Below, piece by piece: positions 24,027-55,768 of a DNA stretch of 64,000 nucleotides. Under the pieces are notes generated by a model. That model searched no databases and was not told the DNA's origin. It was given only the letters and a program-made list of their open reading frames with translations. The stretch spans positions 76,782 to 140,781 of the forward strand of contig JAFLBO010000014.1 in assembly GCA_017303475.1 (NCBI GenBank), in the 5' to 3' direction. Both the position numbers and the translations under genes were made by a program. Source of the DNA: Chitinophagales bacterium. GTDB taxonomy: Bacteria; Bacteroidota; Bacteroidia; Chitinophagales; Saprospiraceae. Every line of letters begins with the position of its first letter. Within the stretch, counting starts at the first letter, position 1.

Positions 24027-25937
24027 TCAATCGTTGAATTGAACGAGTTTCAGTGTTCCGGTTTCCCTCAATTCGTATTCCCTTACGATGGCAAACAGCA
24101 CCGGCAGCACAATCAGCACAAAAAGCGTAGAGGTAATCAGACCGAACACAAAGGGTATAACAATGGGTTTCATCACATCGCTGCCCGTCCCGGTAGCCAG
24201 CAGCACGGGCAAGAGGCCAATAATATCTACCATGACTGTCATCAGTTTGGGGCGCAAACGAAGAACAGCGCCGTCGTAAATAGCGTCTTCGACATCCTGA
24301 TTGGTGAAAGATCTGCTTTCTGCTTTCAGTTTGGATGATTTATCGTACAGCGAATTGTTCATATAAACAAGCATCAGGATACCCGTTTCCACGGCCACAC
24401 CAAACAGTGCAATGAACCCGACAGCCACAGCGACCGAAAAATTGACATCAAAAAAATGAAGGGAATACGCGCCGCCAACGAGCGCGACGGGTATGCCAGT
24501 GAGGACAATCAGTGTTTCGCGAAAAGATTTAAAAGTGAAATACAGGATCATCATAATGATGACAAGCACAATCGGCATGATAATCGTCAGACGCTCGTTC
24601 GCACGCACCTGGTTTTCGTATTGGCCGCTCCATTCTAAGAAATACCCCTTCGGTAGTTTCTGTACGGCGGTTTCCAACTTCTTTTTTGCATCAGCCACGG
24701 TGCTTCCCAAATCGCGGTCGCGTACATTGAACAAAAGCGTTCCGCGCAGCAATGCATTTTCGGAATTGATCATTGGGGGGCCGTCTGAAACACTTACATC
24801 GGCTACTGCTGAAAGCGGAATAGGCCCATATTCCATCGTTTGCATTTGCAACCGTTTCAATTTTTCAATTTTATCCCTGAAATCCTGCGCGAAGCGGACG
24901 TTCACTGAAAAACGTTGCCGCCCTTCAATCGTTGTAGTGACGTTCATGCCACCCAACGCCGTCTCGATAAACATATTCACATCGTCTATAGTCAGCCCGT
25001 AGCGCCCAATTTCATCTTTTCGAATTTTTATGTCAACATACATTCCTCCGGTAATCGGCTCGGCATACAAATCCTTCACACCATCAACGCCCTGCAACTC
25101 TAGCCTGAACTGTTGCGCCAATTTGTTGATGGTATCAAGGTTCTGACCATATATTTTTACCCCTACATCCGTCCGGATCCCGGTGGAAAGCATATTGATC
25201 CGGTTGATGATGGGCTGCGTCCAGCCATTCACTACGCCGGGAATTTGAAGTTTGGCGTTGAGTTGGTCAATGATGTCGTTTTTTGTCATCCCGTCTCGCC
25301 ACTGCGATTGTGGTTTGAGCAGAATGATCGTTTCAATCATGCTCACGGGTGCGTTGTCGGTGGCGGAGTTCGCTCTGCCCGCTTTACCCAGCACATTTTC
25401 CACTTCGGGAAAATCTTTGATGATTTTGTCCTGCACCTGCATGATGCGTTTGATTTCGGAGTTGGAAACGCTGGGCAAGGTGACCGGCATAAACAAAAGC
25501 GAACCTTCGTCCAACGGGGGCATAAACTCCGTACCGAGATTCAGTACCAGGGGAATACTGCCCAGCACAAGTGCAACGCTCAACACAACGGTTGTTTTTT
25601 TCCACCGCATACACAAAAGGATGATGGGCGAATAAATCCACTTGAAAAAACGAGAAACGGGGTGCTTGCTTTCCGGGCGAATTTTTCCTTTCAAAAGCAT
25701 GACCATCAAAACCGGGACGAGGAACACTACGACAAAGGCAGAGCCTATCATGGCAAAAGTCTTTGTCCATACGAGCGGAGAAAACAGTTTGTGCTCCTGC
25801 CCGGTGAGGAACAAAATCGGACTGAATGACACCAACGTGATGAGGATGGAGCTCACGATGGCACCTCCAATCAGTTTGGATGATTTTTCAATCCGGGATT
25901 CTCTTTCTTCGTTGCTGAGCATATTATTCTGTTTCAT
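24027..25937 (-). CDS. CusA/CzcA-family RND pump, C-terminal fragment (TM5 to TM12) of a frameshift-split gene
   Basis: LIGGAIVSSILITLVSFSPILFLTGQEHKLFSPLVWTKTFAMIGSAFVVVFLVPVLM..., through the second large periplasmic loop and the TM8-12 region. It overlaps the N-terminal fragment by 14 nt in another frame. Confidence 0.85.
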   Translation of the reverse strand: MKQNNMLSNEERESRIEKSSKLIGGAIVSSILITLVSFSPILFLTGQEHKLFSPLVWTKTFAMIGSAFVVVFLVPVLMVMLLKGKIRPESKHPVSRFFKWIYSPIILLCMRWKKTTVVLSVALVLGSIPLVLNLGTEFMPPLDEGSLLFMPVTLPSVSNSEIKRIMQVQDKIIKDFPEVENVLGKAGRANSATDNAPVSMIETIILLKPQSQWRDGMTKNDIIDQLNAKLQIPGVVNGWTQPIINRINMLSTGIRTDVGVKIYGQNLDTINKLAQQFRLELQGVDGVKDLYAEPITGGMYVDIKIRKDEIGRYGLTIDDVNMFIETALGGMNVTTTIEGRQRFSVNVRFAQDFRDKIEKLKRLQMQTMEYGPIPLSAVADVSVSDGPPMINSENALLRGTLLFNVRDRDLGSTVADAKKKLETAVQKLPKGYFLEWSGQYENQVRANERLTIIMPIVLVIIMMILYFTFKSFRETLIVLTGIPVALVGGAYSLHFFDVNFSVAVAVGFIALFGVAVETGILMLVYMNNSLYDKSSKLKAESRSFTNQDVEDAIYDGAVLRLRPKLMTVMVDIIGLLPVLLATGTGSDVMKPIVIPFVFGLITSTLFVLIVLPVLFAIVREYELRETGTLKLVQFND

Positions 25938-40402: not shown

Positions 40403-42094
40403 TCAGTTTTTTACAAAAATACCGCTGTAGGTTTTACTCCTTGACAAAACTCGAACAGCGTATGATCCAATAGACATAAATCCCGTTTCTATACTGCCCT
40501 TCCCATTTAAAACTTCTATTGATTGCTCCAAAACTACCTGCCCCAACGCGTCTATAACTTGGCAAATAACACCTTCAGAGGTGGAATTGTCCATCTCAAA
40601 AAATAATGTTTTACTCGAAGGGTTCGGATAAAACACCAACTTGTTGTTGACCAAATCTTCAGTATTACTCGAAGGTGCTGTAACGAGAAATTGCCCCATC
40701 ATTCCGTTGTCTTCATGGCTTAATATGTGACAGTGATACATGTATGGCATATCTGGATCACTGAAATCATCGTACTGTACCACAATTTTGATGTTGCCAT
40801 TCATGGGCGGCACCGTTATCACATCTTTTCGCCCCTTCATATTGGCTGAGGGGGCGCTCCCATTGACAGAAACTACCCAAAATGAATTGCCATGCAGGTG
40901 AAACGGGTGCGCCATCATGGTCTGGTTGGTTAAAGTCCAGACTTCTGTTTTTCCTTGTTCGACCGTGAAATTGATGTTTCCCATGTCGAATTTCAAGCCG
41001 TTTAGGAAAAAATTGGTCATGCTCATCATCGGCTGGGCAGTCATCGTGAGGCTCCGGGGTGTTGCTCCGGTTTGTGAAAGCGGAGCGTTTGAAACAAGGG
41101 TTGCCGGAATGTTTGTCACAGGATTGGAAGTTGGGGCCGTCACCGAAATGGTCATCAGATCAAAATCGGTATCGTCCAACGGACCCATCATATTGTTCCC
41201 ACCACCCATATTCATCATCATGCCGCCAGGGTAACCTTGTGGCAGTAGGCTTCCAAATTGCCGAAGGGTGAGTGTTTGTCCTTCTTTTCCAGTCAAATCC
41301 ACCAAAATTTCAGCGCGTTCACCGGGAGAGAGGATAAGTTTCGACATGGAGACAGGTACATCCAGAAGCCCCCCGTCACCGCCAATTTGGTTGAATATCA
41401 GGTTGTTGGCAAACCCAAAGTCAAAATACCGGTGGCTCGAACCATTCAACAACCGCAATCGCACCACTTGGGCGGGCAAGTTTAGCGTTGCTCCCCTAAG
41501 CACGCCATTTACTAACACCTCGTTGTCTAATTCATCCATTTCCACGATTTGCTTATCTGTGCCAAAGGTTTTCCATTGAAAAACGAGCGGCACATCATCT
41601 ACTCCATACGTTCGGGGCAAGTTGATGGCTGCTTCCTCCTCATCGCGGACGATGATAAAACCGGCTGCGCCTTTTACGACTTGGTTTAGTGTTTTGCCAT
41701 GAGGGTGCGGGTGATACCAGTATGTGGAGGCATGGTCAAGCACTTTAAAGGAAGGAGACCAATTTTCACCCGCCAAAATGGGATTGTGGGGGCTGCCATC
41801 ATTTGATGGAGCGATATGAAGTCCATGCCAATGTACAGTGGTGGTATCGCCCAATTGGTTGTGTACATTAAGCGTTACGGTTTCCCCTTTTTTCAAAATC
41901 AGCGTCGGGCCCAACTGTGTGCCATTATAGCCAATGGTGTTGGTTTGGATGCCGGGGAAAATCTCGCTCGTACCGTGTTGCACCATCAAATCAAAAGTGG
42001 TTCCTTCGAGTGAGAGCGGAATTGGAACGGTAGTTTGGCTCTGGGTGTTTCCCGCTGCTAAGAGTATGACAACGAGGGCTATGTTGAATTTCAT
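40403..42094 (-). CDS. Multicopper oxidase with T9SS C-terminal sorting domain
   Basis: HWHGLHIAP, WYHPHPHG, HPFHLHGNSF and HCHILSHEDNGMM. C-terminus LVFYPNPSSKTLFFEM...GSYAVRVLS. Confidence 0.9.
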   Translation of the reverse strand: MKFNIALVVILLAAGNTQSQTTVPIPLSLEGTTFDLMVQHGTSEIFPGIQTNTIGYNGTQLGPTLILKKGETVTLNVHNQLGDTTTVHWHGLHIAPSNDGSPHNPILAGENWSPSFKVLDHASTYWYHPHPHGKTLNQVVKGAAGFIIVRDEEEAAINLPRTYGVDDVPLVFQWKTFGTDKQIVEMDELDNEVLVNGVLRGATLNLPAQVVRLRLLNGSSHRYFDFGFANNLIFNQIGGDGGLLDVPVSMSKLILSPGERAEILVDLTGKEGQTLTLRQFGSLLPQGYPGGMMMNMGGGNNMMGPLDDTDFDLMTISVTAPTSNPVTNIPATLVSNAPLSQTGATPRSLTMTAQPMMSMTNFFLNGLKFDMGNINFTVEQGKTEVWTLTNQTMMAHPFHLHGNSFWVVSVNGSAPSANMKGRKDVITVPPMNGNIKIVVQYDDFSDPDMPYMYHCHILSHEDNGMMGQFLVTAPSSNTEDLVNNKLVFYPNPSSKTLFFEMDNSTSEGVICQVIDALGQVVLEQSIEVLNGKGSIETGFMSIGSYAVRVLSRSKTYSGIFVKN

Positions 42095-42215: not shown

Positions 42216-43064
42216 TTATAGTTTCACAAAAGAGGCTTGGCCAAGCACCATACCCTCCTCGTCGGTTATGTTCAATCGATAAATACCTGCTTTCAAATCT
42301 GCTACCGGAACCTGATTTTGAGTCAATGCAGTACAGGACAGTAAGCGACCATCCGCTGCCCAGATTACCGCCTGACTAGCTAAACCAATGCCATCCACCG
42401 CATCAACTGAAATGTGTAGTAGATCGGAAACGGGATTCGGCCACACCCGCAGCCGATTCGCCGAAGCAGGGTCTTCTACGCCCAAGCCGATGGAGTCCGG
42501 CAAAAGATGCACCATCAAAGTGTATGTATCGTCGCCGCTCAGCGCATGGTTATGGTTGGAGGCAAGTCCAGCGAGGTACAGTGTGATGTTGCCCACATTG
42601 GTCGCTGGTGCTTTCCAATGGAAGGTCCAGGAAAGGCTGTCCGGCGGTGTAGCGTCTGCACCGCAAGGCGTGTGCGACACATATTTGCGCGGACCGTCAT
42701 TGTACGTGCGGGTGCGAACCGCGTCGTCAATCGTAAAGGTGCCGATGGTCGTATTGCCCGCGTCTTTCAATGCCAGCCCCACGAATCCGAATTTGTCAAG
42801 GCCCAGTTGTTTCATCGTAACTGTGGCATCGAACACTTCGCCAGGTGAATATAGCAACGTGGTGTCGCTGAGCGTCAGCACTAAGCTGCCAGGTCCGGTG
42901 TTAGCTGTGCCACCGTGACAGCCGGTGCAACTGGATTCGCCCGGCGCTCCGGTGTGCCCACCCACTACGGGCGAGTCGCAAGGACCATTCGGTGGGGGGG
43001 AGAAGTTCGCCAGCGCGAGCAGGGCGGCGGCGAGGATTGGAATGAGTAATAGTTTGATTGTCAT
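42216..43064 (-). CDS. T9SS cargo with [17 protein letters not shown] motif (Reeler/DOMON-like; possibly the NCBI choice-of-anchor V family)
   Basis: Signal peptide, a CTGCH (CxxCH) motif and T9SS C-terminus [16 protein letters not shown]...GIYRLNITD. The family name is from memory and uncertain. Confidence 0.55.
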
Positions 43065-47471: not shown

Positions 47472-48554
47472 CTATTCAGGTTTAGTATAAGCCTGATTCG
47501 TCAAAAAATCGGTGTCCGTCAATGTTTTCAAAAACGCAATCAAATCTGCTTTGTCTTGTGCGGTTTTTTGAAGCCCTCCTGGCTGTAGATTGTATTGAAG
47601 GATAAACTCAACAGTTGCGGAGTTCTTTACACCATGATCGTAATGGTCAATCACTTCCTCCAAGGTGGCAAAACGCCCGTCGTGCATATAGGGTGGGGTC
47701 AGGGCGATGTTGCGCAGGCTCGGGACTTTGAACCTGCCCCGGTCAGCCGGGTCATTGGTCACTTTTTTGCGGCCTTCATCGGTCATGCTCGCGTCTGTAT
47801 CAAGGCCATTGTTCATAAATTCGTCATTCGTAAAGTTGTGCCCAGCATGGCAGTGGAAGCATTCTGCACCTTTTGTACTGCCAAATGGATCATATTCAGT
47901 GAAAAACAACACTCGACCACGTTCCTCTTCTGCTGTCAGTGTTGCTGTACCTCTCAAATACTGGTCATACTTCGAATTATAGGAAACCACGGAGAACATG
48001 AACTGCTCCAAGGCCAGGCTCACCCGTTCTGATGTTACGTTTATATCGCCAAAAGCACGGATGAACTGGTCCGTATATTTTTTATCTGCTGATAGTTTCG
48101 CCACCACATTCGGCAGCGTCTCATTCATTTCGAGCGGATTCTGAATAGGCCCAAGCGCTTGATCTCGCACATGAGGGGCTCGGCCATCCCAGAACAAGCC
48201 ATTTTGGTGCCAGGCCAAATTCATAACTGCCATTGCCTGGCGGTCGCCGGGCAGTTTTTCCACCCCAATGCTGAATTGCCTGATATCGGAAAAAGCGTCC
48301 GCTTGTTTGTGGCAATCAGCACAGGCTTGGGAACCGTCTTTCGAGAGCCTTTTTTCATAAAAAAGCATACGGCCTAATTGCACACCTGCTATCGTGAGTT
48401 TGTTGTCAGCTGGCAGGTCTGGCGTAGGGAAGTCGCCAATTTTTAGGTCGTATGGCGTGGGATCATAAGTAGCGGGTGGTTCGATAGGCTCTTTCGGGTC
48501 GCAAGCGGCAAAGAGGCAGGAAATTGCAAAAAAGACGAATAATATTTTTTTCAT
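47472..48554 (-). CDS. Di-haem cytochrome c peroxidase (CCP/MauG/MbnH family) lipoprotein
   Basis: Lipobox LFAAC. Two haem c motifs, CADCH and CFHCH. FKVPSLRNIALTPPYMHDGRFATLEEVIDHY. Confidence 0.85.
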   Translation of the reverse strand: MKKILFVFFAISCLFAACDPKEPIEPPATYDPTPYDLKIGDFPTPDLPADNKLTIAGVQLGRMLFYEKRLSKDGSQACADCHKQADAFSDIRQFSIGVEKLPGDRQAMAVMNLAWHQNGLFWDGRAPHVRDQALGPIQNPLEMNETLPNVVAKLSADKKYTDQFIRAFGDINVTSERVSLALEQFMFSVVSYNSKYDQYLRGTATLTAEEERGRVLFFTEYDPFGSTKGAECFHCHAGHNFTNDEFMNNGLDTDASMTDEGRKKVTNDPADRGRFKVPSLRNIALTPPYMHDGRFATLEEVIDHYDHGVKNSATVEFILQYNLQPGGLQKTAQDKADLIAFLKTLTDTDFLTNQAYTKPE

Positions 48555-48599
48555 AATCGAGTGATTATCATGTCAAAAATTGAAAAAAGGTAGGACAGT

Positions 48600-49673
48600 T
48601 CAGTTTCTGAATTCAGGGTTGGTAATAAATTTTTGGTCGGTCAGGCTATGCAAAAAGGCAAGCAAATCTGCCCGTTCCTGCGCAGTCAAACTGAACGGTT
48701 TGAGCAAGGGGCTTTTGTTCGGGTGCGACTTTCCCCCCGTTTGGTAATGTTCAATCACCGTCTCCAAAGTCGGCAAACTGCCATCGTGCATATAGGGTGC
48801 GGTTATAGCAACGTTGCGCAGGCTTGGCACTTTGAATACACCACGATCACTTTCCAATCCAGTCAACCGGATACGACCTGAATCGGGATAAACCTCATAA
48901 AGGCCGTTGTTTGTAAAGTCTTGATTGGTAAAAAGGAAACCGCCGTGACATTTCGAGCAGTTCAATCTTTCGCTTTGGAACAATTCAAGGCCGCGTTTTT
49001 CTGCGGCTGACAAAGCACTGTTTTTTGCTTGAAATGCGTATTGGTCATATGGAGAATCTCCGCTCAACAACGTCCGTTCAAAAGCTGCAATGGAACGCGT
49101 GATGACAAAGGCATCCAGCTCTCGTTCGTAGGCTTTTTTTGCCATTAGGACATATTCCGGCATTTTTTGTAAACGTTCGGCTACAAGCAAAATGTTGAAA
49201 TCAAATTCATTATGCTCTTGAATGGGCACAAGGATTTGCATTTCTAAAGTAGGTACGCCGCCCTCGCGCAGGAGTTTCTTTTGATAAGCTACATTGGCTA
49301 AGGTCGGTGCATTACGTGTGCCTGCCCGGTTATCAATCCCCAAACTCACTGCCGTACTGTCTGAAAAAGCAAGGTGTGGAGCATGACAAGAACCGCAGGA
49401 ACGGGTACTATCTGCCGAGAGCGCCGGATCGTAAAACAGCCGTTTTCCTAAGGCTATCCGGCTCTTGGTCAAAACGTTGTCTGCGGGAATATCCGGCGAA
49501 TAAAAACCCGCCGGAACGTGCAACACATACTCATCTGTCTCCAGCGGTATGACGGCTGGTTGATCTTCCTTTTGGCAGCGAGCCAAGAATAAGATCAGTA
49601 ACGAGCAAAAGGAGATAAAACGGCGCATTGCTGGTAGTGCAAGTGGTGCCACAACGTTAATTCGTGGCACCAC
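48600..49673 (-). CDS. Di-haem cytochrome c peroxidase (CCP/MauG/MbnH family) lipoprotein, paralogue
   Basis: Haem c motifs CGSCH and CSKCH. FKVPSLRNVAITAPYMHDGSLPTLETVIEHY. The track start at 49673 is GTG; an ATG at 49628 (MRRFISFCSLLILFLARC) is more likely. Confidence 0.85.
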   Translation of the reverse strand: MVPRINVVAPLALPAMRRFISFCSLLILFLARCQKEDQPAVIPLETDEYVLHVPAGFYSPDIPADNVLTKSRIALGKRLFYDPALSADSTRSCGSCHAPHLAFSDSTAVSLGIDNRAGTRNAPTLANVAYQKKLLREGGVPTLEMQILVPIQEHNEFDFNILLVAERLQKMPEYVLMAKKAYERELDAFVITRSIAAFERTLLSGDSPYDQYAFQAKNSALSAAEKRGLELFQSERLNCSKCHGGFLFTNQDFTNNGLYEVYPDSGRIRLTGLESDRGVFKVPSLRNVAITAPYMHDGSLPTLETVIEHYQTGGKSHPNKSPLLKPFSLTAQERADLLAFLHSLTDQKFITNPEFRN

Positions 49674-49685
49674 TATGAGAGCATA

Positions 49686-50684
49686 TTAATGTTTGACTAC
49701 CAACTGTTTACGCGCCAACAAATTACCATTTTCATAAAAAGCGTACTGATAGATGCCTTCTGGAAGTGTGGCGGTTTCTAAGCGTACTGAACCGTTAGCC
49801 GTCAGCCCAGTCAGGCTACGAACTGTTTGACCAAGTGTGTTAGTTAGTATCAGTGCGAGTCCGCTTGAAGCCGGAAGGGTGTATTCAATCATTGTCTCTA
49901 CATTGGCAGGGTTAGGGGATGCCTTAATATTGAGAGAGTTGGCTTCAACCTCATGCGTGGCAGATACCATAGGCAATACGACAAAATTCTGCGTGGCGGC
50001 ATTGTTCATCATATTGACGTTAGGTGCTGCGCTTCCGTGTTGGATAAGGTTGCCGGTCATTGCCATATTTTTGAACAGTTGAGCATAGTCTAATACAAAA
50101 TGAAGGTGTAACACCCCATTGGAGGCCTCTTCCATACCTGTCAGGTCTAAAGTCTTATAGAGTGCATCGCCGAGATTGTGAAACTCGAACGAGGTTTCAG
50201 GTATTCCGTCGCCGTTGTTGTCTACCTTACCCTCAATCGCCATGAATCGATAGCCTGCCGTCCAACCCCATTGCATTGAAGGGTTTTGCGGAGCAAGCGG
50301 ATGGTTGGCTGGATAGGAGGCTGGGTCGAGGTGGTTGACAGCCTGCGGAACACCAAGGTGCAGGGTCACGCCATGTGCTGCTTCGACTGGCCAGGCACCG
50401 AGATCAAATTCTGCCGTTGGATTTTTCGCATTCACCAACAGATACTGGTCAGTGAGTGGCATGACCATGCTATCTGGGTGGTGGATTTCCACTTCTGAGA
50501 TATAAAATTCAGCACGGGTTAGTTTTATTTTTTTGTTGTTCCAAATGCTGAAAACAGTCTCGTTAAGCACCAGAGGGTCGGACCCGACTTTGTGGTCAAA
50601 GGAGAACACGACTTGGTTGTTTTGTGAGAAGGCCGTCGCAGCAAAGGCGACAAAAAGCAGGAGTAGTGCGGATAAACGCTTCAT
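49686..50684 (-). CDS. MbnP-like protein fused to a T9SS sorting domain
   Basis: VVFSFDHKVGSDPLVLNETVFSIWNNKKIKLTRAEFYISEVEI and MQWGWTAGYRFMAIEGKVD fit my memory of MbnP-family motifs. C-terminus IKASPNPANVETMIEY...GIYQYAFYE. It lies directly upstream of the two MbnH-type peroxidases. Confidence 0.6.
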   Translation of the reverse strand: MKRLSALLLLFVAFAATAFSQNNQVVFSFDHKVGSDPLVLNETVFSIWNNKKIKLTRAEFYISEVEIHHPDSMVMPLTDQYLLVNAKNPTAEFDLGAWPVEAAHGVTLHLGVPQAVNHLDPASYPANHPLAPQNPSMQWGWTAGYRFMAIEGKVDNNGDGIPETSFEFHNLGDALYKTLDLTGMEEASNGVLHLHFVLDYAQLFKNMAMTGNLIQHGSAAPNVNMMNNAATQNFVVLPMVSATHEVEANSLNIKASPNPANVETMIEYTLPASSGLALILTNTLGQTVRSLTGLTANGSVRLETATLPEGIYQYAFYENGNLLARKQLVVKH

Positions 50685-50743
50685 GATGAAAAAATTAATT
50701 GATGAAAATTGTGTATTTTAACGGCTAAATGAATTTTGGCATA

Positions 50744-52924
50744 TTATTTTTCCAAAACAATCTTGCGGGTAGTCGAGAATGCTTTGCTGGAAATAGACAG
50801 CAGGTAAATACCATTGGGCAAGTCTCTCAGACTGAGTGATTGTGAATTGGAATTACCTTGGAAGTTGGCTAACTTTTCACCCAAAAGGTTTGTTAATTCA
50901 AGCGAAACTTCAGTGGAGGATTCAGGCAGTCGAACGAGCAAATTGCCTGAAGTTGGATTGGGCGATACTTGTACCTGAGCAGCCCAAGCCAATTCTTCCG
51001 TGTTAGACACTTCTCCAGGAACGATTTTTTTTAGCGTGTTTTGAGTACGGTTGGTGTACCAGATTTCTCCTTCAGGGCCTATTTTTATTCCAGTGATGCC
51101 TGCTTGACCGGTTGCAATGCGTCCCAATTCTGCAAAGCCATTTTCGATATCATAAACAATAATATCGCCATTAGCAAAGTCGCTCACCAATAGGCGGTTT
51201 CCGATGATTTCAATACCTGAAGGGCGACTGAGTCCTTGATTGATGATGACCTCCCAGGTGACATTGCCCATTTCTGAGTGCTCGGCAAGCGGCTCATTGA
51301 TCAGTGGCAAGGCATTCGCAACTGAGCCAGAATTGATGTTAAGGCGTAGTACACGGTCATTTCCATTGTCTACTACATAAAGCCAGCCACTGGTTTTATC
51401 CAATACCAAGTGGCTAGGCACAAATCCGTCTTTTTTCACAGGTATTTCCAAATAACGGCGCACAATGCCGTCAGCATGGTCATCATTTCCTGGGCCATGA
51501 TCCTTCCCGAAGTCATAGCGTACGATGGTTTCATTCCAGCCGTCGAATACCCAGAAAATATTGTCCGCCTCATGTGCAATACCCATGCTATATGGACTGC
51601 CGTGCAGCATATCAAGGTGGCTACCGTTGCCACCGGAGGGTTGGGCATATATGTTAGGGTCGCTTGACCATAACGCTGGACCTGTGAATGAGCCACCATT
51701 ATGATTGGCATCTTTGACACCTGGAGAGGTGGAAAAATTAAAATTGTCTTCGCTAAATGCAATCCCGGTAGGAAGCGACATGAAGTGCCAGGCATTTCCG
51801 TCCACCCGGTTCAGGAAAGTTTGACTGGGCTTACCAGCATCATAAATAGTGAGTGTACTGCCTCCCAAAGCTTCCGTGCGCTCATTGACGACCCAGAGTT
51901 CGTTCTTTGCCAGAATCGGGAAAAAATCCACATCGTTTGGCTTGCTAAGTTGATTGGCCGCAGTAGCTACCGTTGTGTAAATCGGAGCAGCTTGCAGAAA
52001 CTGGTCCACGATATTTGGCGGCACGATATCTGGGAAGATTTCAGTCTCGAACGATAGCACGTTGTTGCCAACATTTTCGTCGGCGATACCGTTAACTGAC
52101 ACAATGGAGACTTGAATATTGTGAATGCCTGCATCGATGGATGTCCAAGGAGTTGGGTGGTGGAACTCGTAATACGCGAAAGGTGCAATGCTCAAGCTGC
52201 TGACCACAGTGGCAACAGGAATGCCGCCGTCAACCATATAGGCAATCTCCAAGGATGTAATGGGAGTCACGCCATTGTTGAAAACCACACCGCTGACATG
52301 ATTTTCTACAATTTCTAATCCGTAAGGTTTAGCATGAAGATCTGTGAGTGCGGCATCAAGCGTAAAAGGAACTTCTATACTCACATTGTCAATGGCCATG
52401 CCGTATAGAAACCCTCCGTTATCATCATAATGGAATGCAACATAAACACTGTCTTTTCCGGCATAAGCGCTTAGGTCAACGAGATGTTGGTCCCAACCGC
52501 CGTGTCCGTGAAGCGTTGCCAATTCGGTCCAGTTCACTTTGTCGAGCGACACCTCAATAGTGCCACGCTCGGTGATGCCCTGATAATTACCCGCTCCAAA
52601 AAAGATATCTGCTTTCAGCACAGTCGATGTTACAGACGAAAGGTTGAGAGGAGGAGTGATGAGATAGTCCTTGCTCTTGTCGCAATTACATGCATCGTCA
52701 TTAGTGGCCACAGCACGCAGCGAACCATTGCTTGAAATGGTGAAATATTGACTGGAAAGGCCAGCAGGGGTGCCGATTTTCCAACCCCCATCGGTAGCCA
52801 AAGTACTGACCGACCAACCAGCCGGAAGACCGTTGGCTTCAAAATTCTCCTGATAAAGAACTTGCGCTGTCAACATACAGGCCCCACTAATTGTACAGAA
52901 AAAAGAAAGTAGAAAATACCTCAT
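50744..52924 (-). CDS. T9SS cargo: MAM/choice-of-anchor-J-like N-terminal domain + NHL-type beta-propeller
   Basis: YQENFEANGLPAGWSV...DGGWKIG. NHL-like repeats (WLYVVDNGNDRVLRL, RLLVSDFANGDIIVYD, EIWYTNRTQNTLKKI). C-terminus VQVSPNPTSGNLLVRL...GIYLLSISS. Confidence 0.6.
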   Translation of the reverse strand: MRYFLLSFFCTISGACMLTAQVLYQENFEANGLPAGWSVSTLATDGGWKIGTPAGLSSQYFTISSNGSLRAVATNDDACNCDKSKDYLITPPLNLSSVTSTVLKADIFFGAGNYQGITERGTIEVSLDKVNWTELATLHGHGGWDQHLVDLSAYAGKDSVYVAFHYDDNGGFLYGMAIDNVSIEVPFTLDAALTDLHAKPYGLEIVENHVSGVVFNNGVTPITSLEIAYMVDGGIPVATVVSSLSIAPFAYYEFHHPTPWTSIDAGIHNIQVSIVSVNGIADENVGNNVLSFETEIFPDIVPPNIVDQFLQAAPIYTTVATAANQLSKPNDVDFFPILAKNELWVVNERTEALGGSTLTIYDAGKPSQTFLNRVDGNAWHFMSLPTGIAFSEDNFNFSTSPGVKDANHNGGSFTGPALWSSDPNIYAQPSGGNGSHLDMLHGSPYSMGIAHEADNIFWVFDGWNETIVRYDFGKDHGPGNDDHADGIVRRYLEIPVKKDGFVPSHLVLDKTSGWLYVVDNGNDRVLRLNINSGSVANALPLINEPLAEHSEMGNVTWEVIINQGLSRPSGIEIIGNRLLVSDFANGDIIVYDIENGFAELGRIATGQAGITGIKIGPEGEIWYTNRTQNTLKKIVPGEVSNTEELAWAAQVQVSPNPTSGNLLVRLPESSTEVSLELTNLLGEKLANFQGNSNSQSLSLRDLPNGIYLLSISSKAFSTTRKIVLEK

Positions 52925-52956
52925 TGTAATATTGTTAAGTGACGAAAATTGATTTC

Positions 52957-52992
52957 AAAAAGGGGACGGCCCGCGTGCGGTGAGCCGCCCCC
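52957..52992 (-). terminator. Rho-independent terminator after the anti-sigma-like gene
   Basis: Minus strand reads GGGGGCGGC TCACCGCACGCGG GCCGTCCCC TTTTT. This is a 9-bp GC-rich stem (one G-U pair) followed by a T-tract, 38 nt downstream of the stop at 53030. Confidence 0.7.
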
Positions 52993-53029
52993 AGCCTATG
53001 AAAAAACTACCTTTGGGTAGTGAATTCCG

Positions 53030-54352
53030 TTAAAAAAGCAAGTTCATACCTGCCTGGATTCCTAAAAGGTCAGGTGTGATGCCACTCGGTTTTTTCCACG
53101 ACCGCTGATAAAAACCTTCCAAAGACAAGTCGAAGCGTGGGGAAAGCGGTATTACGACCCCTGCACTCAGGCCAAGGATATTCTTCATCCGCGTCCGGGT
53201 TGTGACCTCAAGAGTTTCTTTCTGAACGGTTCCGGTCGGTTCGTGCTGGATTTCGTATTCGATGGTGAATGGCAGAAGCGTTTGACCACCCCAGCCTAAA
53301 CCAAGGAAAGGGCGGGGCTTGCCTGGCTGAGCAAAAGTGTAGCGTAAACCGAGACTGAATTCATGGATTTTTTGCCCAGTCACGTCCATTTCCGTGAGGT
53401 GATGCTCCATGGATGGGAGCATGGGAAAATCCGGCGATCCCAAAATAGCTTCGGGCGTGTGAGCTTTGTAGTGCAACTGCCCCTTTCCAACGTTCGCCAT
53501 CACGCTCCAATGCCGCGAGAGCCCTATTTCGCCGTGTAAGTTGTACAAAAAACCACCTTCATGCATCAATCCCGTACTGTTGGCATACAACCAGCCGAGG
53601 TTCAATCCGACTTTGAAAAACTTAGGGCGAAGTGCATCCGTAAGCTTTTTGGAAAATGGTTTAGTTGGTATCTTTTCTTTTATGGGGAGTGCAAGGCTTT
53701 CTGGAGAGTGAAGTGCCGATTTTGAAGTATCTGGCAAGGTTAAGGCAGAGTGCTCCGCCAGAGCCAAATCAGCACCCTCCAAGATTGAATCTGACTCCGC
53801 CTGGGATTGCTTATCCAAGGAAATTATGTTGGAAGTCTTTTCTGAATATGAATGGGTTTTATCAGCAGATTCGTTGTCTAGCATGGGGAGGAAAGTCGTT
53901 ATGTACGATACTTGAAAGCTATCTTCTTGACTTGTCTTTGATACGGCTAACCTACTTTTTTCATTGCGAGCAGATTGCGCATACCCTACTTCATTTGGAC
54001 GAACGTAAACTGTCTGCCAAAGTGTATCATGTACCACTTTATATTGTAGCGCACCCGATCCCCCTCCTAACGCCGTAATGGATGCTTTCAAATCTAACAT
54101 CTGTACCTCCAGCCGAGTTAACGAAGCCTGATCGGTGCGGCTTGACTGCCACCACATTGCATTGCTTGATAGCAAAGCCGTTATAAGCAGCAGGGGTATT
54201 ACAATTGACCGCCTTTTTCCTTGCGGCTGTTGTGGCAGCGCAGCATTCAGACGCTCACCGAGAGAAGCCCAGTCGTCATCACGATGTTTTTCGGAAGGCC
54301 GCAATGCGGCCATTTTGTCCTTTAATAGGTCAAAAAAATTCTTGTCTGCCAT
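53030..54352 (-). CDS. Anti-sigma-like membrane protein with a C-terminal beta-barrel-like domain
   Basis: It starts 5 nt after the ECF sigma gene. Single TM segment SIVIPLLLITALLSS. C-terminal alternating beta pattern ending ...GIQAGMNLLF. Confidence 0.5.
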   Translation of the reverse strand: MADKNFFDLLKDKMAALRPSEKHRDDDWASLGERLNAALPQQPQGKRRSIVIPLLLITALLSSNAMWWQSSRTDQASLTRLEVQMLDLKASITALGGGSGALQYKVVHDTLWQTVYVRPNEVGYAQSARNEKSRLAVSKTSQEDSFQVSYITTFLPMLDNESADKTHSYSEKTSNIISLDKQSQAESDSILEGADLALAEHSALTLPDTSKSALHSPESLALPIKEKIPTKPFSKKLTDALRPKFFKVGLNLGWLYANSTGLMHEGGFLYNLHGEIGLSRHWSVMANVGKGQLHYKAHTPEAILGSPDFPMLPSMEHHLTEMDVTGQKIHEFSLGLRYTFAQPGKPRPFLGLGWGGQTLLPFTIEYEIQHEPTGTVQKETLEVTTRTRMKNILGLSAGVVIPLSPRFDLSLEGFYQRSWKKPSGITPDLLGIQAGMNLLF

Positions 54353-54357
54353 CTTTT

Positions 54358-54903
54358 TCAGTTGCCGTGTATTAATTCTATGGTCATCATTTGTTTAAGC
54401 TTAGCACGTGCTTTCGAGAGGTTCGACTTGGATGCACCGACCGAAATGCGGAGCATTTCTGCAATTTCGGAGTGTGTATGGCCTTCAAGTGCAAAAAGAC
54501 TTAGAGTCATTCTATAGGCTGGAGGAAGCTTTTGGATCAGGATTATCATATCTTCCGCAGCCATTTTGGACAGATAGTCATCTTCCACACTTAGATTCAA
54601 CTCTTCGGTCATGTCATGTATCACTATGTCCTTCAGGTGCTTATGATAATGGTTGATGGCTGTTCGAACTACGATAATGCGCAACCATGTCGTGAATGAG
54701 AGGTTCTCATTGTAGTTACCGATGCTGGTAAAAACTTTGAGGAAAGCATCATTCAAGACTTCGCGGGCTTCCGTTTCGAGGCTACAATAAGTTAACGCCA
54801 CGGACAGGGCATAACCGTAATAGCGGTCATACAGTGCTTTTTGACTTAGCCGGTCATTGTTCCGGCAGCCAGCCACGATATGCTTTAACCCTTCGTCTTT
54901 CAC
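54358..54903 (-). CDS. ECF-type RNA polymerase sigma-70 family factor
   Basis: Region 2 LYDRYYGYALSVALTYC...FLKVF. Region 4 EGHTHSEIAEMLRISVGASKSNLSKARAKLKQ. GTG start at 54903. Confidence 0.85.
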   Translation of the reverse strand: MKDEGLKHIVAGCRNNDRLSQKALYDRYYGYALSVALTYCSLETEAREVLNDAFLKVFTSIGNYNENLSFTTWLRIIVVRTAINHYHKHLKDIVIHDMTEELNLSVEDDYLSKMAAEDMIILIQKLPPAYRMTLSLFALEGHTHSEIAEMLRISVGASKSNLSKARAKLKQMMTIELIHGN

Positions 54904-55768
54904 CTTTGATTATCAATTCAGGAAAATTGACTTAGAGGTTGCCTGGCAGGGTGATTTTTTTTGAGGCTTCATATTTTCTTTTTGACCCATTGGGCTTCTA
55001 TGCTTGAGGCAGACAGGTGAAGCGTCTTTTGAAATTTTTTGAGTATAATGCAGAATGCAAAACCGCCACCTGGGTAGCAGAGGAACTCAGAGCAAGCTGT
55101 CAGGTTAGAGTTCGTGTACAGTTTTAAACTGGCACGGGATCGAATCGAGGTTGACCAGTTCGGCTCGTACAATGATTACTTCTGAGTAGTAAGCCATACT
55201 GTTCAAACTTGGCTTTTCAAAAATTCTTTAGCGCTTCAAGTAGATTTGGAGTTATTAACAGACTTCTTTGGATGAAAAAAAGTGTTCGCGAGTTGTGAAC
55301 AGGCTAAGGCATGATCTCATAATGCCGCCGCCTCCCCCTCCGAGTTATTTCTCCCCCTTCTTCTGTCATTTTGAATGCATTCCCCCTACAGGCTTAATAT
55401 GCATGGTATAGGAGCTAACTGTTCATGTTTTTAAGTGGGACCGATATGCATTAGCAATAAGGTATGCCACTCTTATAGCAATGATATCTCATTAAGTATG
55501 CGCTCTTCACTTCATTTCGTGCCGGATAACAAATGCTTCCAGGAATCATGGACGCAGGTCTGAAAGTAATGTGCGGAGCCTTCAGCACAGATGCTATGTT
55601 GTTAAATCCGTATGACCTGCGAAATTTTGCGGTGAAAGTTGGTAAGCAATAATGAACCTTGGATTCCCACAAATCAAGGCTGTATGAATTGAAAACCACC
55701 CAGTTGTACTTGAGACATAAACAACTGGATGGTTTTTGTATTGTAATTATTTTGATGTGTATAAGTGA

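Follow-up and report, generated by a model that had tools for sequence, protein, structure and literature searches.

Gene organization of the locus

The stretch analyzed here, hereafter the window, comprises 64,000 nucleotides from the genome of a Chitinophagales bacterium of the family Saprospiraceae (assembly GCA_017303475.1, contig JAFLBO010000014.1, positions 76,782 to 140,781). On its minus strand lies a cassette of three genes. An MbnP-family gene (49686..50684), recognized by its Pfam profile, encodes a 332-residue protein that ends in a sorting domain of the type IX secretion system (T9SS). It is followed by two genes for MbnH-type di-haem enzymes, which we call H1 and H2. H1 covers 48600-49673 if translated from a GTG codon and 48600..49628 (342 residues) from the more probable ATG, which leaves a gap to mbnP of 12 or 57 nucleotides, respectively. 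H2 (47472..48554, 360 residues) follows 45 nucleotides further on. The cassette is part of a longer co-directional run (40.4-54.9 kb, minus strand) in which all genes share one strand and are separated by short spacers. We interpret it as encoding a T9SS-exported MbnP-type protein with a link to copper handling, for which the MauG-type enzyme encoded next to it would carry out maturation, a reading to which we assign a probability of about 0.8. This reading is built on domain identities, motif conservation, synteny, the presence of the T9SS machinery and the copper-gene context.

The initial annotation had placed an MbnP-like open reading frame and two MbnH-type di-haem frames beside a copper island. 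All three frames were found on the minus strand at the positions given above, and the copper island was confirmed as well: the window encodes three multicopper oxidases, two Cus-type resistance-nodulation-division (RND) sets and a copper P-type ATPase, together with HMBD/DUF3347 and HMA proteins and a galactose-oxidase-like T9SS cargo. Of 79 related loci, 35 have at least one gene for a multicopper oxidase, Cus component, copper ATPase, HMA or DUF3347 protein no more than 7 kb from the cassette, and 17 have a multicopper oxidase within that distance. At the related loci L005 and L008, a P-type ATPase or an RND pump is encoded downstream.

The MbnP-family protein

The assignment of the 332-residue protein to the MbnP family was borne out by profile hidden Markov models. 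Pfam MbnP (PF20243) matched residues 23-212 (50049-50618, minus strand) with 111.2 bits against a cut-off of 27, and the WxW motif is kept. This motif reads S-M137-Q-W139-G-W141 (50262..50279, minus strand), and a further block reads N117-H118-L-D120-P121 (50322..50336, minus strand). Across 76 orthologues with 27-91% identity, residues M137, W139, G140, W141, N117, H118, D120, P121, H169 and H216 are invariant. Among these, M137, H118, H169 and H216 are candidate copper ligands, chosen from conservation only.

The link to the solved MbnP structure 7L6G rests on a fold search, a bridging paralogue of the same genome and an hhalign comparison of the WxW segment. An AlphaFold model of the protein, built from 15 homologues, reached a predicted local distance difference test score (pLDDT) of 83.5. 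When this model was queried against the PDB with Foldseek, the six top matches were the six chains of 7L6G (E 3e-7 to 8e-6, probability 1.0). A tail-less MbnP paralogue encoded in the same genome matched 7L6G directly (E 6e-4) and bridges the window protein to it. The 76-sequence family aligned with the WxW segment of 7L6G with a probability of 86% (E 5e-6), pairing SMQWGW with GMAWNW and VNHLDP with VNHSN, and setting W139 on the first tryptophan. According to PMC11951088, the first tryptophan of the MbnP WxW motif is the one converted to Kyn174. Because W139 aligns with this residue, it is the predicted kynurenine precursor. The conserved Trp and His residues to which the initial annotation alluded can thus be named as W139, on Kyn174 of 7L6G, and the invariant H118, H169 and H216. 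By sequence, the window protein is a member of the broad MbnP family that carries the diagnostic motif, yet it belongs to a distinct subfamily.

The sorting domain and the export machinery

The hydrophobic N-terminus of the MbnP protein forms a signal peptide (50625-50684, minus strand) that ends before Q21, a residue invariant in the 76 orthologues. Cleavage is expected before this glutamine, which fits the Q-rule for signal peptidase I substrates of Bacteroidetes (PMC5837995). At the other end of the protein, the sorting domain (49692-49919, minus strand) was recognized by the T9SS type-A profile TIGR04183 over residues 256-331 with 24.4 bits against a cut-off of 23. The Pfam sorting domain PF18962 scored just under its own cut-off (24.2 versus 27). 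TIGR04183 was matched by 69 of the 76 orthologues with a best E of 4e-12, and the family profile also matched solved T9SS sorting domains (8glk_D, E 7e-5; 8glj_D; 8qb1). The C-terminus of the MbnP model superposes on the mirolase sorting domain 8qb1 with a probability of 1.0 and a template modelling (TM) score of 0.71, and conserved tail residues include P257, N258, P259, G285, Q286 and G310.

The machinery that such a tail addresses is encoded in the genome, with SprA (2311 bits), PorU (1202 bits) and PorV (483 bits) all above their cut-offs. The earlier claim of a T9SS export tail on the MbnP frame therefore holds, on the TIGR04183 match of the protein and its orthologues and on the presence of these three components. 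At least 150 sorting-domain matches were found in the genome, so such a tail is common in the organism.

Two distinct di-haem enzymes

Both enzymes matched CCP_MauG (PF03150), H1 with 163 bits and H2 with 188 bits, and for both the best PDB match was MbnH 6E1C (E 3e-50 for H1 and 3e-54 for H2). H1 carries a lipobox LARC (49575-49586), the sequence C-Q-K-E-D (49560-49577) and the haem motifs CGSCH (49383-49397) and CSKCH (48945-48959). H2 carries a lipobox FAAC (48501-48512) and the haem motifs CADCH (48309-48323) and CFHCH (47847-47861), all of these features being on the minus strand. Tyr310 of H1 (48744-48746, minus strand) and Tyr305 of H2 (47640-47642, minus strand) align with the tyrosine of 6E1C and with the methionine position of the canonical peroxidase 3O5C. 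From this alignment we infer that they serve as the distal ligand of the E haem. Such His-Tyr ligation, with Tyr for Met at the E haem, marks MauG-type enzymes (PMC11892367). The alignment also showed that the distal histidine is absent from both H1 and H2.

The two enzymes are not equivalent. H2 keeps the motif FWDGR with the inter-haem tryptophan (48180-48194, minus strand), which in H1 is replaced by LLREGG (49257-49274, minus strand). The inter-haem tryptophan is described as highly conserved in the superfamily, with BthA as the known exception, an enzyme that functions although this residue is missing (PMC11892367). The tryptophan is believed to relay charge from one haem to the other. 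Among H1-like enzymes encoded in tail-less cassettes, the position is occupied by R, M, F, K or W.

The initial annotation called the two enzymes paralogous peroxidases, a description that does not stand in the sense of recent paralogues. H1 and H2 share 38% identity, and in a tree with 120 relatives 67 H1 sequences formed one clade and 44 main H2 sequences another, with the H2 clade nearer to other paralogues of the same genome than to H1. A recent tandem duplication was rejected on the grounds of this identity and of the two separately conserved clades.

Synteny, distribution and relatives

For the synteny counts we used the 61 loci that have 2.4 kb or more of sequence downstream of mbnP; the genomes concerned are related and not independent of one another. 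Both H1 and H2 follow mbnP in 37 of these loci, H1 alone in 14 and H2 alone in four. H1 thus adjoins mbnP in 51 of 61 loci, its start usually lying a few nucleotides from the mbnP stop. The same 332-residue architecture was found in 259 protein clusters, whose named sources are mostly metagenome-assembled genomes of Saprospiraceae and Lewinellaceae, and a relative is encoded in 314 species-level genomes. Database annotation labels the members "MbnP family protein" or "T9SS type A sorting domain-containing protein". Among 201 genomes sampled across the order, 43 had a match with E <=1e-20, about 20 of which also covered the tail. The distribution is patchy, with three of 16 genomes positive in the family of the window itself (within the same sample).

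The genome contains ten CCP_MauG genes in all and three further, tail-less MbnP/MbnH modules (C5:67.4-73.4 kb, C50:208.7-210.4 kb and C13:40.8-43.7 kb). In two of these the MbnP is a lipoprotein, and in the third it is soluble. The MbnP of the C13 module has W-A-G-W in place of WxW.

Lipoprotein signals and the location of the enzymes

The lipobox cysteine is present in 66 of 67 H1 orthologues and in all 47 of the H2 orthologues. After this cysteine, H1 orthologues have K at position +3 in 83% of cases, D/E at +4 in 79% and D/E at +5 in 55%, with C-x-K-[DE] in 71%. The same pattern occurs in about 10% of 202 lipoproteins of the genome, a background set from a crude regular-expression prediction, and C-x-K-D occurs in four of the eight SusD-like surface lipoproteins of the genome. 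A surface-lipoprotein export signal with the optimum C-X-K-(D/E)2-X has been defined experimentally in Capnocytophaga (Lauber et al. 2016, PMC5080379). As H1 orthologues conserve C-x-K-(D/E), H1 may act on the external side of the outer membrane. H2 lipoproteins mostly read C-D-P-K/D-E/D-P without K at +3, and H2 of the window reads C-D-P-K-E-P.

H1 of the window reads LAR-C-Q-K-E-D, that is, a perfect export signal with an arginine at position -1 of the lipobox. Among 66 orthologues this arginine is found in the window sequence only, the others having A, S or G, and the 89%-identical H1 at locus L040 has LASC. The earlier description of two lipoprotein peroxidases is thus secure for H2, with its clean lipobox FAAC, and qualified for H1 by the atypical residue in LARC.

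We also fetched 20 tail-less relatives from the order. Nearly all of them are lipoproteins with acidic and often C-x-K-D/E N-termini, and they are followed by H1-like and usually also H2-like lipoproteins. Since these tail-less MbnPs are lipoproteins with export-like signals, routing to the surface looks normal in the lineage, and MbnP seems to reach the outer membrane or surface in one of two ways, by a lipid anchor or by a T9SS tail. The general layout in the lineage seems to be one MbnP with two different MauG-type enzymes. The premise of the initial annotation that the pair normally stays in the periplasm fails here, given the acidic, export-signal-like N-termini of the tail-less lipoproteins and the surface location of the kynurenine proteins MopE and CorA (PMC3912023).

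Two further features of the tail-less loci were observed. At L090, L101, L104 and L105, two or three tandem MbnP lipoprotein genes precede one H1/H2 pair, and some MbnP lipoproteins of loci L089-L108 have His-rich N-termini (C-S-K-D-H-D-H-D).

Neighbouring genes and intergenic elements

The co-directional run opens with an ECF (extracytoplasmic function)-type sigma-70 factor of 181 residues (54358..54903, minus strand) with Sigma70_r2, r4_2 and ECF matches. Five nucleotides after it starts a gene for a 440-residue putative anti-sigma or membrane protein (53030..54352, minus strand) with one transmembrane segment at about residues 49-67 and a weakly outer-membrane beta-barrel-like C-terminus. 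The sole family match of this protein was OMP_b-brl (20 bits, below cut-off), and we infer its anti-sigma role from position only. In the closest clade and in a second one, the cassette is preceded by the sigma factor and 440-residue genes. About 14 related loci, as well as L005 and L008, have an ECF gene and the gene after it upstream of mbnP.

Directly upstream of mbnP lies the gene for a 726-residue T9SS cargo (50744..52924, minus strand) with a choice-of-anchor-J domain, an Ig-like domain, a beta-propeller-like region and a type-A sorting domain. The choice-of-anchor-J and sorting domains are firm (NF038128, 45.9 bits; TIGR04183, 43.5 bits). An earlier description of this protein as an NHL-propeller T9SS cargo was accurate in its second part, while NHL itself remained below threshold, with one repeat at 18.6 bits against a cut-off of 20. 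The AlphaFold2 model (pLDDT 72.7) shows repeated four-strand blades over residues 445-635, and Foldseek with the whole chain returned only generic jelly-roll, Ig and propeller-containing multidomain matches with TM scores of at most 0.2. Homologues of this gene adjoin mbnP in 15 of 80 loci, for which reason we rejected it as an obligatory partner of the cassette, and both H1 and H2 were present in 14 of the 14 of these loci that are complete. The protein is more conserved than MbnP (57-81% identity where MbnP has 31-81%) and has dense invariant His/Asp/Asn motifs (DANHNGG, GGNGSHLDMLHGSP, DHGPGNDDH) at residues 376-444 and 475-483. AlphaFold modelled this motif-dense stretch with a pLDDT below 50; it may be a metal site or an active site in a propeller.

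A shared block, CAATTTTC followed by an (A/G)TCA(C/T)(C/T)TAA-like sequence, was observed 15-30 nucleotides upstream of the start codons of the 726-residue cargo gene and of mbnP, and CAATTTTCC precedes the ECF gene. The regions concerned are 52925-53029, 50685-50743 and 54904-54935, all on the minus strand. The block precedes mbnP or the 726-residue cargo gene in about 15 related loci and could be a promoter element of the -7 type or a leader element. Two hairpins with T-runs lie directly after the 440-residue gene (52955-53025, minus strand), namely ACTACCCAAAGGTAGT-TTTTT and GGGGGCGG...CCGTCCCC-TTTTT, and both are kept in L010, L011, L016 and L017. These hairpins suggest that the sigma pair is transcribed as one unit and the cassette as another. 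In a promoter and terminator scan, sites were no more numerous than in shuffled sequence.

After H2, in order of transcription, come a Crp-type regulator, an M43 peptidase with a sorting domain, a 414-residue protein of no assigned family, a choice-of-anchor-V protein with a sorting domain (42216-43064, minus strand) and a CueO-like multicopper oxidase with a T9SS tail (40403..42094, minus strand; Cu-oxidase_3/_2 and sorting-domain matches). The oxidase forms part of the context, outside the conserved core. The choice-of-anchor-V cargo bears a CTGCH motif and has homologues near the cassette in six related loci. Elsewhere in the window, a CusA-like frame (24027-25937, minus strand) spans only positions 417-1021 of the ACR_tran model, and the N-terminal half is not in-frame upstream, so this gene may be split or broken.

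Proposed maturation and its alternatives

Taken as a working model, the cassette would provide a cell-surface copper-binding protein. Sec would export the MbnP-type protein and signal peptidase I would cut it before the invariant Gln21. The folded protein would then cross the outer membrane through the T9SS by means of its type-A C-terminal domain, which PorU would remove, leaving the protein anchored or released. A MauG/MbnH-type enzyme would use H2O2 to oxidize Trp139, the first tryptophan of M-x-W-G-W, to kynurenine. This kynurenine, a conserved Met (M137) and conserved His (H118, H169 or H216) would then make up a Cu(I) site. H1, whose gene comes directly after mbnP, would be the cognate enzyme. 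H2, with its inter-haem tryptophan and without K at +3, would more likely face the periplasm in an auxiliary role. The cassette would probably be under the control of the upstream ECF sigma pair, and its role would lie in surface copper homeostasis, as Cu(I) buffering or capture. Either of these two may apply, buffering under copper stress in view of the surrounding efflux and oxidation genes and capture by analogy with MopE and CorA. The formation of kynurenine, copper binding, the surface location of H1, the division of roles between H1 and H2 and the regulation are all predictions from the genomic evidence.

A number of observations weigh against this working model. The protein scored 50 bits against the 140 required by the NCBIfam MbnP equivalog TIGR04052 (MbnP_like_WxW/four-Cys), with residues 92-157 aligned, and all 76 orthologues matched this model weakly too. 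It has no cysteine, so the four Cys of the characterized type, which was deposited as 7L6G under the name "four-Cys motif protein", are absent. Superposition of the model on 7L6G was moderate (TM 0.39-0.48 over about 250 columns), and 7L6G was not reached in PDB-wide sequence searches with the single protein or with two family profiles. The residue before the WxW tryptophan is Gln138 (50271-50273, minus strand), where at least 90% of the 76 orthologues have His (M-H-W-G-W); this histidine could be an extra ligand, lost in the window strain. Both enzymes had MbnH (TIGR04039) as their best NCBIfam family with scores below its cut-off of 362.85 (298.7 for H1 and 244.7 for H2). In H1, moreover, the inter-haem tryptophan position is taken by Arg, and LLREGG is at least 90% conserved over the 67-member clade. 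The arginine at -1 of the window H1 may prevent or affect lipidation, and the rule for the export signal comes from work on Capnocytophaga rather than on Saprospiraceae. No haem enzyme adjoins mbnP in six of 61 loci. To our knowledge, export of a holo di-haem lipoprotein across the outer membrane of Bacteroidota has not been shown so far, and we know of no experimental datum for any member of this MbnP subfamily.

Within the reading of a T9SS-exported MbnP-type protein, the place of maturation is a separate question. The initial annotation had it precede export, in the periplasm, which we retain as one of two live options; C-x-K-(D/E) in 71% of H1 orthologues versus about 10% of the background points instead to the outer face. 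As the mature N-terminus of H1 carries a surface-export signal, a site of maturation on the outside of the outer membrane is narrowly favoured. There, H1, a predicted lipoprotein with a C-x-K-(D/E)2 N-terminus, and its substrate would both be tethered, with environmental H2O2 at hand. Maturation of a surface MbnP by H1 at this site is our best explanation, though a tentative one held at somewhat less than even odds. On the other hand, H1 and H2 may both be outer-membrane lipoproteins that face the periplasm, W139 being converted to kynurenine, and copper perhaps loaded, before export through the T9SS. Attachment of c-type haem is periplasmic, H2 lacks K at +3 and the lipobox of the window H1 is atypical. 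T9SS cargo also folds in the periplasm, and the glycosylation of Cel9A is a periplasmic modification that precedes T9SS export (PMC11285876). The export-like N-termini of the tail-less MbnP lipoproteins, which are paired with H1-like lipoproteins, speak the other way. MopE of Methylococcus capsulatus and CorA of Methylomicrobium album are surface Cu(I) proteins with a Trp-derived kynurenine, co-transcribed with di-haem peroxidase-like proteins (PMC3912023, PMC3423442). CorB, the di-haem partner of CorA, is mainly periplasmic, whereas MopE has a surface-located partner, SACCP (PMC3912023), and both location models therefore have precedent. On balance we regard periplasmic maturation as a substantial but lesser possibility. 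A broader version of outer-face maturation would have cofactor biogenesis take place outside the cell throughout: H1, which lacks the inter-haem tryptophan, would be flipped to the surface by the lipoprotein export pathway of Bacteroidota and would use environmental H2O2 to form kynurenine on the T9SS-displayed MbnP, H2 would be separate and periplasm-facing, and the Bacteroidota MbnP clade as a whole would work at the surface, by lipid anchor or T9SS tail. This version we consider less likely than not.

Two alternatives question the reading itself. The di-haem enzymes could act on another substrate, such as the 726-residue cargo or a neighbouring multicopper oxidase, or scavenge peroxide or transfer electrons, leaving a non-catalytic MbnP-like domain without kynurenine. 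The sub-threshold MbnH scores of both enzymes, the missing inter-haem tryptophan of H1 and the loci in which MbnP has no adjacent haem enzyme would agree with this, as would the occurrence of the 726-residue cargo gene, with its many invariant His/Asp residues, only alongside both H1 and H2 at complete loci. However, both enzymes have the MauG-type Tyr instead of Met and no distal His (PMC11892367), the coupling of H1 to mbnP (51/61 loci) far exceeds that of the 726-residue gene (15/80), and M-x-W-G-W is strictly invariant, all of which makes another substrate improbable. Least probable of all is that the C-terminal domain has decayed to a non-functional state and that the protein stays in the periplasm like a classical MbnP. 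The borderline scores of the window protein with TIGR04183 and PF18962 are what a decayed tail might give, but the orthologues match TIGR04183 with E values down to 4e-12, the family profile and the model agree with solved sorting domains, and the window tail keeps the conserved P, N, G and Q positions, so we consider decay very unlikely.

Comparison with known systems

The closest characterized system is the MbnP/MbnH pair of Methylosinus trichosporium OB3b (7L6G, 6E1C), reportedly described by Manesis et al. in 2021 (cited in PMC11951088). Both MbnPs belong to the same Pfam family and their WxW motifs align, with W139 on Kyn174; 7L6G is the best fold match, the best solved relative of the adjacent enzyme is 6E1C, and both systems stand in a copper-homeostasis context. 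In contrast to OB3b MbnP, the window protein, at about 18% identity to 7L6G, has no Cys and fails TIGR04052, and its enzymes fail TIGR04039. The cassette also differs in its T9SS tail, in having two distinct lipoprotein haem enzymes rather than one, in the absence of the inter-haem tryptophan from H1 and in its Bacteroidota host, and neither methanobactin genes nor an MbnT-type transporter were seen. Compared with MopE and CorA, on the other hand, the copper protein is of an unrelated fold (PMC11951088), and the hosts of those systems are proteobacterial, without T9SS. The MopE/CorA genes serve copper-repressed acquisition in methanotrophs, whereas the context of the window is mostly copper efflux and oxidation.

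The enzyme H1 resembles BthA of Burkholderia (6NX0) in lacking the inter-haem tryptophan, and BthA is reported still to form bis-Fe(IV) (PMC11892367). Unlike H1, BthA is larger, has no Ca site and no MbnP partner, and the match between the two is weak (E 1e-13 over about 40 residues). As in other T9SS type-A cargo (RgpB, mirolase 8QB1 and the Flavobacterium johnsoniae sorting domains in 8GLK/8GLJ), the MbnP protein consists of a Sec signal, a passenger and then a C-terminal domain that is Ig-like, about 75 residues long and matched in both sequence and fold; the difference lies in the passenger, which here is an MbnP domain. The C-Q-K-E-D of H1 fits the Bacteroidota export signal C-X-K-(D/E)2-X, and the positional frequencies in its orthologues mirror the published logo (PMC5080379). 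That signal was defined in Capnocytophaga, Bacteroides and Flavobacterium, a basis that does not extend to Saprospiraceae or to c-type cytochromes.

No paper linking MbnP with T9SS was found in the searchable literature. The parts (MbnP/MbnH, MauG-type chemistry, T9SS tails and the lipoprotein export signal) are known, and their combination is undescribed in that literature. New here are the clade structure of H1 and H2, the loss of the inter-haem tryptophan in H1, the evidence for an export signal and the alternative between lipoprotein and tail among the relatives.

MbnP/MbnH pairs are widespread outside methanobactin operons. The cassette described here places such a pair in a different phylum, with a predicted copper protein that would be sent to the cell surface through the genetically tractable T9SS, and it offers two natural enzyme variants, one with and one without the inter-haem tryptophan. 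It thereby makes testable the site of kynurenine formation, the need for the inter-haem tryptophan and whether kynurenine-copper sites at the surface serve copper capture or defence. If maturation were indeed extracellular, formation of the copper site would be gated by extracellular peroxide. In either case, a cargo that depends on a redox cofactor would be added to the repertoire of the T9SS.

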